A stretch of DNA of 64,000 nucleotides, taken from the NCBI GenBank assembly GCA_963820145.1, contig CAWFZD010000024.1, forward strand, positions 36,216 to 100,215. Direction: 5' to 3'. The stretch comes from an uncultured Alphaproteobacteria bacterium (lineage in GTDB: Bacteria; Pseudomonadota; Alphaproteobacteria; Rhizobiales; Beijerinckiaceae). Of this stretch, positions 56,234 through 63,335 are shown in pieces (within the stretch, counting starts at the first letter, position 1; each line of letters opens with the position of its first letter). Both the position numbers and the translations under genes were made by a program. The notes beneath the pieces are model-generated. The model saw only the letters and a program-made list of their open reading frames with translations. It was not told where the DNA came from and did no database searches.

Positions 56234-56476
56234 TTAGCAGAAAGCTAAGTTTTGCGCTTGATTGTATCTGGCGGCGGCGAGGACGGCGTTGGCGGCGTCG
56301 CCTTGCGTATGGGCGAGGAAGTTGCGGCCCATGCGATGCTCGGCCTTAAGATGGCCGATGACCGGTTCGACGGCGGGGCGGCGGCGCAGTTCGCGTTTGA
56401 TCTGCTCGGTGACGCGCCGTCTCTGGCCCGAGATGAACACCCTGAACTTATGACAGTTGTCGCGGTCGCATCTCAA
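56234..56476 (-). mobile_element. IS5-family transposase C-terminal remnant
   Basis: RVFISGQRRRVTEQIKRELRRRPAVEPVIGHLKAEHRMGRNFL...GDAANAVLAAA; N-terminal part absent. Confidence 0.8.
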
Positions 56477-56599: not shown

Positions 56600-57659
56600 T
56601 TAGTAGACCTCGACTGCGTCGAGATGAAGATAATTGCGTTCGTTCAACTGCAACCGAACGTATCTCGCCTTTTCGTTATTCAGCATTGCCCGTAGAGGAA
56701 AGCCATCGACGCCGCCGAAGGGGCGACCAGCTTGATCATGAACCAATTTCCATGTGGCGCCGTTGGTGGACAACAATATTTGCAGCGTGCGGGAGCGCTG
56801 ACGCGAGCCGTAAATCCGGTTATAGACGCGGACCTCGTGCAAAGTCTCGCTGCGGCCCAGGTCCACTTGCCACCACGGCTTGTCTTCTTCATTGGTGTGG
56901 AAGCCGAAGCGTCCGTCCTTCTTTCCACTGAGGGCGCCCTGCGCGTCATCCGCTTTGGACCACGTCGACAGGCTGCTTTGCATGGCTTTTTTTCCGAGCG
57001 CGAGATTTTTGCGCTCCGTCGGAATTTCCGCCGTCACGCGCGCCCGGCAGTAGAATGCGTCGCCATGGCCGTTGCTATTAAGCTGCATCCATCTCATTCT
57101 AAGTCCAAATTGCCTGAGAAACTCAGTTATTTCTTCATGCACGCATCCGCCTTTGTATAGGGGTTCCTCACTAATTTCGACAAAAACGCCGTCGATGAAG
57201 GAAAGGATTTTCCGGGCGCCCTTCAGGACCTTGAGATCCGCACCCTGCGTGTCGATGACGAGAAGATTGGGGAATTGCTTGAGCTTGAGTTTGTCGACTA
57301 GGCTATCGACTGTCGTTGTCACCATTCGCTGGGAAGCCGCGTAGCGAACCGTGGGATAGAATTCCGCATGGGCTCCTAGGTCGAGCATGCTGGAGGAAAG
57401 ACCGTCGTTGCTCGAGATATTGAATTCGATCTTCTCGCCTTCGACATGCCGAACAGACCGCTTGGACGGCGATATGTCCAGGGAATTCCGCAATTTGCTT
57501 CTTCAGCAATGCGAAGACCTTGTCGATCGGTTCGACATAAATGCAAGGGTTGGCGCCGCTTTCCGCATAAGCGAAACGTTCCTGCCCCTCATTGGCGCCA
57601 ATGTGCAGAACGCCCTCGACAGGAAATCCGGCGGACCTCATCAATTCCAAAGCGTACAT
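56600..57659 (-). CDS. FkbM-family methyltransferase fused to an F5/8 type C (discoidin/fucolectin-like) domain; frameshift ~57450
   Basis: VLHIGANEGQE, VEPI, LVIDTQGADLKVLKG; then NLALGKKAMQSS, FHT, PWWQVDLG, VRVYNR, ARYVRLQL, LHLDAVEVY. Confidence 0.82.
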
Positions 57660-57856: not shown

Positions 57857-59305
57857 CTATTTGCCGTCGGCGAGTTCGGACAATTTCGCCTTGAGTTCCG
57901 CGATCTCGCTCTCCGCCCGCACCTGCACGGTGGCGTCATACTGAATGCCGAGCAGATACAGAAGCCTGCCGCCCATGTCGTAGAGCGGCGAAATGGACAG
58001 CCGATTATGGAAAAGCGCGCCATCCTTGCGATAGTTGCGCAGCGTGACTTCGATCGGCGCGCGCTTCTCGATCGCCGCGCGCAATTGCGCCCGGGCCTCC
58101 TGGTTGCGGTCGTCCGCCTGCAGAAATCTGCAGTTCTGTCCCAGAATGTCGTCGATCGCATAGCCGGTGATGCGCTGAAACTCCTTGTTGGCGTAGACGA
58201 TCGGCGCGTCTTCCTGATCCGGGTCGGCGAGCGTGACGCCATTGACGCAGGAGTCGAGAATCCGGGTAAGCATTTCAGGGATCAGCTCGGTGCGCTTTTG
58301 CACGGCGAAGACGTGGCCCTTGGCCTGGTTGCGCGCGCGGGCGAGCGCCCGATAGGCGCCCGGCGCGACGCCTTTGAAGCGGCGGAAGGCGCGACGAAAA
58401 CTGGCCTCGTCCACGAAGCCGGCGGAAGCCGCGGTCTCCTTGACCGATTTGCTGCTCGTCTCGAGCAGCGTCTGCGCGGTCTCGACGCGCACGCGGTCTA
58501 TGAAGGTCTTCGGCGATTCGCCGCTCGCCTGTTTCAAGCGGCGGTGCAGCGTGCGCTCCGAGGTCGATAGCGCCCTGGCGAGATCGAGGGTCGAGAGCGG
58601 CGCGTCCGCCGCCAGCCGCACCGCGCGTTCAGCCTCGACGAGGAACGGATCGAGCCCGGAGAGGTAGCCGCTCGCCTGATAGGCGCCGTGATCGCGGGAA
58701 GCGCCGTCCAGCGCCGTCAGTTCGGCGGCGATGCGCGCCGCGGCGTCGCCGCAGAGCGTGCGGACGCAATGCAGCGCGAGATCCATCCAGGCGAGCGGCG
58801 CGCCGGCCGTGACGACCCTGCGGTCGTCGATCAGAACGGCGCCCCGCGCTGCGTCGGCGCGCGGATAGCGGCGCTTCAGCTCGTCGAGGTTGCGCCAGCT
58901 CGTCGTGCATCTGCGCCCGTCAAGCAATCCCGCTTCGCCGAGCAGGAACGCGCCGGTCCCCGCCCCGCAGACCATCGCCCCGCGCGCGTGCTGGCGCCGC
59001 ATCCAGGCCGCGACCCCGGCAAGATGGTCGAGCAGCGGCGGTTGGCCGGCTTCATCAGGTTGAAAGCCGGGCGTCAGGATCGCGTCACATGACGTTATTT
59101 CTTCGAACGACGTCTCAACCGAGAAACTGCGCCCGAAGCCGTCGACGATTCCGGATCCGCTCGCGCTCGCGGTGATCATCGAGAAGGGCGGCTCCTCCCC
59201 GGTGGCGCGGGCGATCGCCTCGCGCGCAAGGGATAGCGCGTCAACGACGCCAATGAAGGCGGAGCCCAAGCAACCGCTGACGCCGGCGACGACGATTTTG
59301 ATCAT
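57857..59305 (-). CDS. GlxA-type regulator (DJ-1/PfpI + AraC HTH) with C-terminal LOV domain
   Basis: GAFLLGEAGLLDGRRCTTSW; STSERTLHRR...AGFVDEASFRRAFRR..GVAPGAYR; PIVYANKEF..ITGY...GQNCRFLQ...NYRKDG..F.N...GIQYDAT. Confidence 0.92.
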   Translation of the reverse strand: MIKIVVAGVSGCLGSAFIGVVDALSLAREAIARATGEEPPFSMITASASGSGIVDGFGRSFSVETSFEEITSCDAILTPGFQPDEAGQPPLLDHLAGVAAWMRRQHARGAMVCGAGTGAFLLGEAGLLDGRRCTTSWRNLDELKRRYPRADAARGAVLIDDRRVVTAGAPLAWMDLALHCVRTLCGDAAARIAAELTALDGASRDHGAYQASGYLSGLDPFLVEAERAVRLAADAPLSTLDLARALSTSERTLHRRLKQASGESPKTFIDRVRVETAQTLLETSSKSVKETAASAGFVDEASFRRAFRRFKGVAPGAYRALARARNQAKGHVFAVQKRTELIPEMLTRILDSCVNGVTLADPDQEDAPIVYANKEFQRITGYAIDDILGQNCRFLQADDRNQEARAQLRAAIEKRAPIEVTLRNYRKDGALFHNRLSISPLYDMGGRLLYLLGIQYDATVQVRAESEIAELKAKLSELADGK

Positions 59306-59486
59306 GACGAGCCCAGTTTGGCGAGTTATGCACTTATTATGGCGGCTAGGCGGTCCTAACCTTTTTCATAAGTGCGACATACTGGCGCAAACGGCGCGCA
59401 AAGCCCATTATAAAAAGATGGTCGGCTGAGGCCTAGCGCGGCTAGGCCGCGAGGTTGCTTTCGAGAGCGCGCCGGGGAGAGGAAAC

Positions 59487-61412
<1,926 letters not shown>

Positions 61413-61438
61413 CGCATAGCCTATTGATCACTCTGGAT

Positions 61439-61468
61439 AAGCCCGGCCAGAAGCCGGGCTTGTTTTTT
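61439..61468 (+). terminator. Rho-independent terminator after ftsH
   Basis: aagcccggc-cagaa-gccgggctt then gtttttt. Confidence 0.85.
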
Positions 61469-61686
61469 GCTCTTCGCGTCGTCGGCTGCGGCCTCCCGCT
61501 TCGGCGTCGACTGTCGTCAAGCCGTTTGTCTTGCAAAGCTTTGCGATTCATCCGCTTGACGCCGCCGGGGATTTGGCCGAAACTGCGCTTAATTTGGCGA
61601 CTATGTCACGTGTGTTTGACGTCGCAAAAGAGCATGGTCAAGCAACCCTGAGAATTAAATCTCAGGTCAATAACGGAGGATATAAC

Positions 61687-62454
61687 ATGAGCTCCACCAC
61701 CGACACGGCTGCCGGCGCAGCCGCTGGCGCTGATACAGTCGTCGATCTGAAGGGCATGTGGATCGGCCTCGCCGCTCTCAACACCTTCTATCTCATCGTC
61801 CGCATTTACGAGCAGGTCTTCGGCTGGCGCGCCGGTCTCGACTCCTTCGCGCCGGAGTTCCAGACCTACTGGCTGTCGATTCTGTGGACGGAAATCCCGC
61901 TTGAGCTGGTCGCCGGTCTCGGCCTCGCCGGCTATCTGTGGAAGACCCGCGACCGCAACGTCGACGCCGTGGCGCCGCGCGAAGAGATGCGCCGCCTCGT
62001 CGTTCTCGTGCAATGGCTGACGGTTTACGGCATCGCCATCTACTGGGGCGCCTCGTTCTTCACCGAGCAGGACGGCACCTGGCACATGACGGTGATCCGC
62101 GACACCGACTTCACGCCGTCGCACATCATCGAGTTCTACATGAGCTACCCGATCTATTCGATCATCGCGGTGGGCGCGTTCTTCTATGCGAAGACCCGCA
62201 TCCCGTATTTCGCTCATGGCTACTCGCTGGCGTTCCTCATCGTCGCCATCGGCCCGTTCATGATCATCCCCAACGTGGGTCTCAACGAATGGGGCCACAC
62301 CTTCTGGTTCATGGAAGAACTCTTCGTCGCGCCGCTGCACTGGGGCTTCGTGTTCTTCGGCTGGATGGCGCTCGGCGTGTTCGGCGTCGTGCTGCAGATC
62401 CTCGCCCGCATCCATGCCCTGATCGGCAAGGAAGGCGTCGAGCTTCTGGCGTAA
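61687..62454 (+). CDS. pmoC: Particulate methane monooxygenase subunit C, stand-alone copy
   Basis: GGAGG RBS; GLDSFAPEFQTYW, YWGASFFTEQDGTWHMTVIRDTDFTPSHIIEFY, PNVGLNEWGHTFWFMEELFVAPLHWGFV; no pmoA/pmoB follows. Confidence 0.97.
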   Translation: MSSTTDTAAGAAAGADTVVDLKGMWIGLAALNTFYLIVRIYEQVFGWRAGLDSFAPEFQTYWLSILWTEIPLELVAGLGLAGYLWKTRDRNVDAVAPREEMRRLVVLVQWLTVYGIAIYWGASFFTEQDGTWHMTVIRDTDFTPSHIIEFYMSYPIYSIIAVGAFFYAKTRIPYFAHGYSLAFLIVAIGPFMIIPNVGLNEWGHTFWFMEELFVAPLHWGFVFFGWMALGVFGVVLQILARIHALIGKEGVELLA

Positions 62455-62484
62455 TCGACACATCTCGCTTCCGAGCGATTTGGG

Positions 62485-62516
62485 CCTCTCCCCGACATTC
62501 GGGGAGAGGTTTTTTT
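62485..62516 (+). terminator. Rho-independent terminator after pmoC
   Basis: cctctccccg-acatt-cggggagagg then T7. Confidence 0.9.
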
Positions 62517-62591
62517 ATGGGCGCAACTCGATATGACGAAGCTGCGTTTAGCAATATTCGAGAATTTCGCGGAATTGTGTATGTGACGCGC

Positions 62592-63335
62592 ATGACCTTC
62601 GCCGCCGATTACGCTCCCGCCCGCGTGCTGCCTTCGCCCAATCACAACGACAGGCGGCGTCCAGTCTCTTCGCTGATCCTGCATTACACCGGCATGCCGA
62701 GCGCGCAGGCCGCGCTGGATCTATTGCTGAGCCCGGCGGCGGAAGTCTCGGCGCATTATATGGTCGACGAAGACGGCTCCGTCCTTCAGCTCGTCCCCGA
62801 AGCCAGACGCGCCTGGCACGCCGGCAAAAGCTTTTGGCGCGGCGAGACGGATATGAACTCCGCGTCGATCGGCGTCGAGATCGTCCATCCCGGACATGAC
62901 GACCCGAGGCCCTACCCAAAAGCCCAGATCGCGGCGGTGATCGCCCTGGCGCGCGACGTTTGCGCCCGCAATCGCATCGAGAAGCGCGACGTGCTCGGCC
63001 ATTCTGACATCGCGGTGACCCGTAAAATCGATCCTGGGGAATTCTTTCCCTGGGGCGAACTCGCCGCGGCGGGAGTCGGGCTCCATGTCACGCCTGCGCC
63101 GCTTTTGGGGCTTGAGACGCCGATCGGCGACGCTGAGACCTTCGCGTTGCGCGCCGGTCTCGCGCGCTATGGCTATAACGTCGCCGCGACCGGCGCCTGT
63201 GACGCGGCGCTGGCCGAGGTGGTCGCCGCCTTCCAGCGGCACTTCCGCCCCGAGCGGGTCGACGGACGCGCCGATGCTTCGACGAGAGCGACGCTGCGGG
63301 CGCTGCTCGACGAAATGGACCGGAGCCGCCGATGA
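62592..63335 (+). CDS. N-acetylmuramoyl-L-alanine amidase (AmiD/AmpD type) with peptidoglycan-binding C-terminus
   Basis: SPNHNDR, ILHYTG, VSAHY, AWHAGKS, SIGVEI, GHSDIA..RKIDPG, AFQRHFRP. Confidence 0.92.
   Translation: MTFAADYAPARVLPSPNHNDRRRPVSSLILHYTGMPSAQAALDLLLSPAAEVSAHYMVDEDGSVLQLVPEARRAWHAGKSFWRGETDMNSASIGVEIVHPGHDDPRPYPKAQIAAVIALARDVCARNRIEKRDVLGHSDIAVTRKIDPGEFFPWGELAAAGVGLHVTPAPLLGLETPIGDAETFALRAGLARYGYNVAATGACDAALAEVVAAFQRHFRPERVDGRADASTRATLRALLDEMDRSRR

Follow-up and report, generated by a model that had tools for sequence, protein, structure and literature searches.

A probable light-sensing DJ-1/AraC/LOV transcription factor, set back to back with an extra ftsH and a lone pmoC in Methylocystis

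What would a blue-light receptor control in a methanotroph? The question is raised by one gene in a stretch of 64,000 nucleotides (hereafter the window; assembly GCA_963820145.1, contig CAWFZD010000024.1, positions 36,216 to 100,215) from an uncultured alphaproteobacterium of the Beijerinckiaceae, whose genome falls in the same GTDB genus as Methylocystis rosea SV97 and M. parvus. The gene encodes a protein (hereafter LOV-TF) in which a DJ-1/PfpI-like domain and an AraC-type double helix-turn-helix (HTH) are followed by a LOV module, and it stands divergently from an ftsH paralog with a monocistronic pmoC behind it. This architecture is not new, having been published in 2015 (PMC4416707), and by its sequence the window protein is a new, divergent ortholog of an already described photoreceptor. 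We consider it very probable that the protein is a light-sensing transcription factor. Taken together with its neighbourhood, it is likely a homodimeric factor of the AraC/GlxA type through which blue light would set the adjacent ftsH, its own gene and probably pmoC.

A three-domain protein with a complete LOV signature

An earlier note on this DNA had read an uninterrupted open reading frame of 482 aa. Inspection of the frame, on the minus strand, bears this out, and three domains were found along it:

57857–59305, minus strand: coding sequence of LOV-TF, 482 aa, start ATG at 59305; ortholog of Methylocystis McLOVn-TF
58712–59305, minus strand: DJ-1/PfpI-like (class I glutamine-amidotransferase-like) domain, residues 1–198 (Pfam, AlphaFold2, fold matches)
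58331–58648, minus strand: AraC-type double HTH DNA-binding domain, residues 220–325 (HTH_18 and HTH_AraC, AlphaFold2)
57869–58279, minus strand: LOV module, residues 343–479, made of an A'alpha N-cap, a core (356–457) and a J-alpha helix (459–479)

Pfam matches were obtained for DJ-1_PfpI (PF01965; residues 43–181, 37.8 bits against a cutoff of 26.6) and, above their gathering scores, for HTH_18 (PF12833; residues 242–320, 84 bits) and PAS_9 (residues 356–459, 64 bits), so that the LOV domain is indeed C-terminal to the AraC HTH, as had been noticed from the letters. The YtvA-family LOV model of NCBIfam matches residues 346–478 (E 6e-42). The AlphaFold2 model consists of three well-folded domains (pLDDT 80, pTM 0.45) joined by low-confidence linkers at about residues 199–218 and at 325–340, and for the N-terminal part Foldseek gives matches to the DJ-1-like domains in the AraC-family regulators 3gra and 3er6. 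With E-values for the homology of the LOV-TF reaching 1e-254, chance is excluded.

The order of an N-terminal DJ-1/PfpI-like domain and an AraC double HTH, found by Pfam and by fold hits, is that of GlxA/FtrA-type regulators. In NCBIfam, an FtrA-like match covers residues 60–323, and FtrA- and GbdR-type GlxA matches together span residues 41–329. The scores remain below the equivalog cut-offs (141 bits against 425 for FtrA, 86 bits against 480 for GbdR); on these profile scores the protein is a member of the broad GlxA/FtrA family and not an FtrA or GbdR equivalog.

All LOV motifs quoted in the earlier note were found: GQNCRFLQ (residues 389–396), NYRKDG (424–429), FHN (432–434), GIQ (453–455) and DAT (457–459). 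The adduct cysteine, Cys392 (codon 58130–58132), lies inside GQNCRFLQ and is kept in 89 of 90 aligned orthologs. Across 30 orthologs N391, C392, R393, Q396, R409, N424, N434 and Q455 are invariant, as are P343, D351 and T358 of the N-cap and core, while C353 is nearly so. We take N391, R393, Q396, R409, N424, N434 and Q455 to be flavin contacts, matched to N449, R451, Q454, R467, N482, N492 and Q513 of AsLOV2. In sequence and in fold, residues 343–478 are best matched by Pseudomonas short LOV proteins (E about 1e-31; Foldseek TM about 0.8), with whose J-alpha the terminal helix of the LOV-TF aligns. This helix, predicted by AlphaFold2 at residues 459–479 with heptad residues I468, L471, L475 and L478, corresponds to the short coiled coil that had been proposed to follow the LOV domain.

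El-Arab, Pudasaini and Zoltowski (PLoS One, 2015; PMC4416707) described two Methylocystis LOV proteins, one a short LOV and the other McLOVn-TF. The isolated LOV domain of McLOVn-TF (residues 337–490) binds flavin, bleaches at 450 nm to give a 390-nm C4a adduct, recovers with a tau of 130 s and is a constitutive dimer (PMC4416707). The complete set of photochemical residues and this photocycle of an ortholog support the earlier proposal of a blue-light-switchable GlxA-type regulator. The paper makes no mention of ftsH, pmoC, methane, genomic context or targets, and in the literature we found no later work on full-length McLOV-TF, its targets or the SC2 locus tags.

The same protein lacks the cysteine of its DJ-1 domain. 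That the usual CTG reads GTG at the DJ-1 nucleophile, as first noticed in the translation, is upheld by the AlphaFold2 model and by the alignment columns: the nucleophile-elbow position is Gly116 (codon 58958–58960), between a strand (residues 111–115) and a helix (118–124). Given a glycine at this strand-helix elbow, the domain is unlikely to be catalytic or thiol-reactive. In the alignment the column is Gly in 84 of 90 full-length LOV-bearing orthologs and Cys in all 21 close LOV-less relatives; among 29 LOV-less representatives at greater distance, 26 likewise have Cys there, which makes 47 of 50 LOV-less relatives overall. The loss of the cysteine thus tracks the LOV fusion, and as far as these alignments reach the change from Cys to Gly is specific to the LOV-TF clade. 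Position 115 is Cys in many or most LOV-TF orthologs and Ala in the window protein. It is reasonable to infer that a ligand function based on a thiol of the DJ-1 domain may have given way to light sensing.

Of 56 Methylocystis genomes, 40 carry a frame of the LOV-TF type and 12 are without any LOV. The earlier note would have taken LOV as a separate gene in orthologs to refute its reading; the fusion is kept in all 40 of these genomes. Some copies look damaged, with an internal deletion of residues ~121–424 in one locus (L077), frameshifts in two others (L072 and L081, the latter in genome G123) and in-frame TGA codons in genomes G134 and G135; such defects may be either errors of assembly or genuine decay. 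Across the wider family, LOV domains of comparable similarity turned up in the genus Methylocystis alone. When 1.84 billion representatives at 50% identity were searched, one representative, standing for a single cluster, covered the full length of the LOV-TF, and the remaining top hits comprised multidomain LOV/PAS proteins and GlxA regulators lacking LOV, at 46% identity or less. Four candidates for independent AraC-LOV fusions (P0143, P0221, P0215 and P0258) were rejected, since they are multi-PAS proteins or kinases and have no AraC HTH. We also observed, in the purple sulfur gammaproteobacterium Ectothiorhodospira shaposhnikovii DSM 243 (L074, 5968–6420), a short LOV protein of 150 aa that keeps the ILDxCVNGVT N-cap. 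It shares 60% identity with the LOV module of the Methylocystis LOV-TF, and the LOV subfamily is thus not confined to methanotrophs.

The ftsH–pmoC locus and its candidate operator

On the other side of the LOV-TF start codon the window holds the following features:

59487–61412, plus strand: ftsH paralog, divergent from LOV-TF, with intact AAA and M41 domains
61435–61472, plus strand: intrinsic terminator after ftsH, a 13-bp stem and a T-run
61687–62454, plus strand: monocistronic pmoC (AmoC family), with its own terminator at 62482–62512
59316–59363, minus strand: conserved 48-bp block, candidate operator of the divergent region 59306–59486 (alignment, position weight matrix (PWM) scans)
61572–61602, minus strand: weaker second repeat pair, lying after the ftsH terminator and before the pmoC start; ranked third among PWM hits in the genome

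The arrangement is constant within the genus. The LOV-TF is divergent from ftsH in all 30 species-level Methylocystis loci that retain upstream DNA, at an intergenic distance of 165–187 bp (181 bp in the window, 59306–59486). pmoC comes next after ftsH in 10 of 10 loci with enough flank, and likewise in genomes G006 and G100; the terminator hairpin of ftsH is kept in 10 of 10 aligned loci. Assemblies often break inside the LOV-adjacent ftsH, which fits with ftsH and pmoC each occurring in repeated copies. Since a second ftsH of the window genome (contig C20, 40748–42670, 82% identical) occupies the usual tilS-ftsH-glmM setting, the window ftsH is an extra paralog. Wherever this was checked (4 genomes) the LOV-adjacent ftsH is a second copy, and congeners carry 2–4 ftsH copies. 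In an FtsH phylogeny, LOV-adjacent and tilS-adjacent copies separate in one subclade; the deep nodes of the tree are unresolved, and we do not claim a single ancient ftsH duplication. In genome G123, the tilS-linked ftsH copy also has a pmoC after it (L094).

Dam et al. (2013) reported ftsH beside monocistronic pmoC in both SC2 and Rockwell and, as a speculation, raised quality control for particulate methane monooxygenase (pMMO), mentioning neither a regulator nor light (PMC3794950). We found no paper connecting the Methylocystis LOV-TF with this ftsH–monocistronic pmoC pair, and the constant back-to-back position of the LOV-TF with an extra ftsH and a spare pmoC looks new.

That the regulator subfamily governs pmoC and ftsH, and does not simply lie next to them, is best argued from the recurrence of the pairing at unrelated loci. 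LOV-less GlxA paralogs, 50–52% identical to the LOV-TF over residues 1–327 and with the cysteine retained, were identified, and four of five stand divergently from a lone pmoC. One of them lies in the window genome itself (contig C92, 148551–150469; 52% identity to residues 2–327), divergent from another lone pmoC. Such a pair is also found on the chromosome of G006 and on one plasmid-like contig each of G006 and G132, with ftsH directly after pmoC on both of these contigs. For the fifth paralog (G006, C4:116916) no pmoC hit was found within its 1.5-kb flanks. The intergenic regions of the paired LOV-less paralogs carry GCCA-core repeats at the equivalent place.

A comparable signal is present in the intergenic region of the LOV-TF. 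Just upstream of its ATG, a 48-bp block is kept across about 30 Methylocystis species while the rest of the region is variable, and it holds two (T/A)(C/A)GCCAAA direct repeats spaced 21 bp. A PWM for the repeat pair was built without the window sequence and scanned over the whole 4.2-Mb window genome, where the window's own site ranked second. The best hit (C108:17434), between HIT-family and prephenate-dehydratase-like genes, was treated as chance. Upstream of pmoC, TGGCG repeats with 21-bp spacing are conserved in 7 loci. We also tried a sigma-70 reading of the block (-35 TTGGCT, 17 nt, -10 TAnATT for ftsH; CATAAT for LOV-TF) and rejected it: it fits most species and not the window's own subclade, and a consensus scan found nothing there.

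Public RNA and DNA runs give cover only on the conserved AAA region of ftsH and on pmoC, from contigs 90–99% alike that belong to other organisms. Cover on the LOV-TF gene is negligible (depth below 1 in a few bins), and the runs have no bearing on expression or co-transcription.

Other genes around the locus were annotated as well. Beyond the pmoC terminator, positions 62550–63335 (plus strand) encode an N-acetylmuramoyl-L-alanine amidase (Amidase_2) with a peptidoglycan-binding domain. At 56600–57659 (minus strand) lies an FkbM-type methyltransferase joined to an F5/8 type C (discoidin) domain; since a separate overlapping frame (57303–57659) holds its N-terminal part, the gene may be frameshifted. 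Located between the LOV-TF and the porin genes that flank the LOV-TF in congeners, it looks like an insertion. The methyltransferase is adjoined by an 80-aa open reading frame (56234–56476, minus strand) without a Pfam hit, in which inspection by eye suggests the C-terminal end of a transposase of the IS type.

A proposed path from light to transcription

We propose that the LOV-TF is probably a homodimer whose C-terminal LOV domain would bind flavin. Blue light would form a Cys392-flavin C4a adduct in that domain, and the adduct may reposition the A'alpha/J-alpha dimer interface, as in Pseudomonas short LOV proteins. A linker of about 16 residues would then pass the change to two AraC HTH domains seated on the direct repeats (TTGGCG...TTGGC) 21 bp apart. 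In this way light would govern how the adjacent ftsH paralog and the LOV-TF gene itself are transcribed. Control would probably extend to the neighbouring monocistronic pmoC, through its own promoter region with the related repeat pair. That ftsH, pmoC or both are direct targets is suggested by the arrangement of the genes and repeats, and we regard the chances of this as about even.

Several observations weigh against control of the neighbouring genes by the LOV-TF, and some of them point to a genuine light-sensing factor whose regulon lies elsewhere (photo-oxidative stress, pigments, repair), with the ftsH-pmoC adjacency being inherited synteny and the block being promoter elements only. All synteny, including the 30 of 30 divergent loci, was seen within a single genus, and it extends in part to the porin genes on the opposite side; shared descent therefore explains part of the conservation. 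In the LOV-free genomes G122 and G132 (L083, L084) the ftsH-upstream block is retained, with a luxI-type acyl-homoserine-lactone synthase gene and about 1.1 kb of non-coding DNA in place of the LOV-TF and no LOV-TF remnant found at this locus. The block thus serves ftsH and cannot depend on the LOV-TF alone. The pmoC-side site scores 9.4 with the PWM, barely over genomic noise (9.2, 8.9), and the window's copy of the block is the most diverged (27.6, against 39–56 elsewhere). Furthermore, AlphaFold2 yields no confident inter-domain geometry for the LOV-TF (pTM 0.45), and the full-length ortholog McLOVn-TF was insoluble in E. coli, forming inclusion bodies (PMC4416707). The last point also limits the optogenetic appeal raised in the earlier note. 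A regulon elsewhere nonetheless leaves unaccounted for the independent pairing of LOV-less paralogs with pmoC or pmoC-ftsH, at unrelated loci and on plasmids, and the related 21-bp-spaced repeats ahead of both ftsH and pmoC. AraC/GlxA-type regulators, moreover, commonly act on the divergent neighbour gene. We take a regulon elsewhere seriously while considering it somewhat unlikely.

Two further explanations concern the switch itself. El-Arab et al. raised competitive dimerisation with a short LOV protein, similar to fungal VVD/WC-1, in which case the transcription factor would not act as the switch by itself; the isolated LOV domain of the transcription factor and the short LOV proteins are both dimeric (PMC4416707). 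Among the 40 LOV-TF-positive genomes, 27 also carry one to three short LOV genes, 49–64% identical to the LOV domain of the LOV-TF. The remaining 13, most of them more than 90% complete, are without a short LOV, so such a partner is not obligatory, and no short LOV gene was found in the assembled part of the window genome, a metagenome-assembled genome that is 68% complete. We hold competitive dimerisation to be unlikely as the main mode of signalling. In vivo, the LOV domain could also be a redox or oxygen sensor working through flavin reduction, or a mere dimerisation module; a redox switch had been allowed for in the earlier note as well. Methanotroph habitats are oxic-anoxic interfaces and often dark, LOV flavins are reducible, and the conserved N-cap Cys has been linked to oxidative-stress sensitivity in fungal LOV proteins (PMC4416707). 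A purely structural or redox role would not require Cys392, yet the adduct cysteine and all photocycle residues are kept as described above, and the LOV domain of the ortholog photocycles normally (PMC4416707); we therefore find this explanation very unlikely.

What light control of ftsH and pmoC might be good for can be phrased as a repair module for pMMO. Blue light would damage the copper enzyme, the FtsH paralog would clear damaged subunits and the spare PmoC would replace them, with the LOV-TF as the light input that induces both; the LOV-less paralogs would answer to chemical signals, received in their intact Cys pocket, and so run the remaining lone pmoC copies. The homologous ammonia monooxygenase loses its activity under blue light and needs new synthesis to recover (PMC9797979). 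A similar logic operates in the FtsH/D1 repair cycle of photosystem II. We offer the repair module as a tentative idea and think it fairly unlikely to be right as a whole.

As a type of protein, the LOV-TF adds little to the architecture and LOV photochemistry published in 2015. Its value is the context, in which the Methylocystis LOV-TF (PMC4416707) meets the unexplained ftsH–monocistronic pmoC pair (PMC3794950) at one locus. The locus bears on the roles of lone pmoC copies and on the light inhibition of copper monooxygenases (PMC9797979), and what makes it of interest is not the domain fusion but the link with ftsH and pmoC, which can be tested.

Comparison with known systems

McLOVn-TF of Methylocystis sp. 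Rockwell has the same genus, the same order of three domains and nearly the same length (about 490 aa against 482 aa). The landmark residues of McLOV are Pro12, Asp20, a Cys-containing turn (21–24), Thr27 and Gln124 (PMC4416707). With an offset of 331 they become P343, D351, S352-C353-V354-N355, T358 and Q455 of the window protein, so that the N-cap Pro, Asp, Cys-turn and Thr and the active-site Gln are found at equivalent positions. The window protein is 79% identical to the nearest database entry and 59–64% identical to proteins of named or isolated Methylocystis strains, and it differs from most orthologs in reading Ala115/Gly116 where they read Cys115/Gly116.

With GlxA/FtrA-type regulators (FtrA, GbdR; 3gra, 3er6) the window protein shares the N-terminal DJ-1/PfpI-like domain followed by HTH_18, which in those proteins is C-terminal, but it adds a C-terminal LOV and has Gly in place of the elbow Cys. 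LOV-less Methylocystis relatives are 52–62% identical to it over residues 1–327. The Pseudomonas short LOV proteins (PpSB1-LOV, 3sw1/5j3w; PpSB2-LOV, 7a6p; SBW25-LOV, 7yx0) have the same A'alpha and J-alpha coiled coil and are all dimeric with a parallel LOV architecture; they are without an effector domain, whereas the LOV module of the window is attached C-terminally to a DNA-binding protein.

A LOV domain C-terminal to a nucleic-acid-binding effector is also found in aureochromes (bZIP-LOV) and in PAL (PAS-ANTAR-LOV, 6hmj), whose LOV domain matches the LOV-TF at E 1e-26. Their effectors, bZIP and the RNA-binding ANTAR, are different, as are the taxa, and PAL operates through intramolecular autoinhibition. 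EL222 (LOV-LuxR HTH) and the engineered BLADE proteins, in which VVD is fused to the AraC DNA-binding domain or this domain to VfLOV, are likewise LOV-controlled one-component transcription factors. EL222 differs in its N-terminal LOV and LuxR-type HTH. One BLADE variant carries its LOV C-terminal to the AraC DNA-binding domain, as the LOV-TF does, and acts via light-driven dimerisation; BLADE is synthetic and without a DJ-1-like domain, whereas the LOV domain of McLOVn-TF is already dimeric in the dark.

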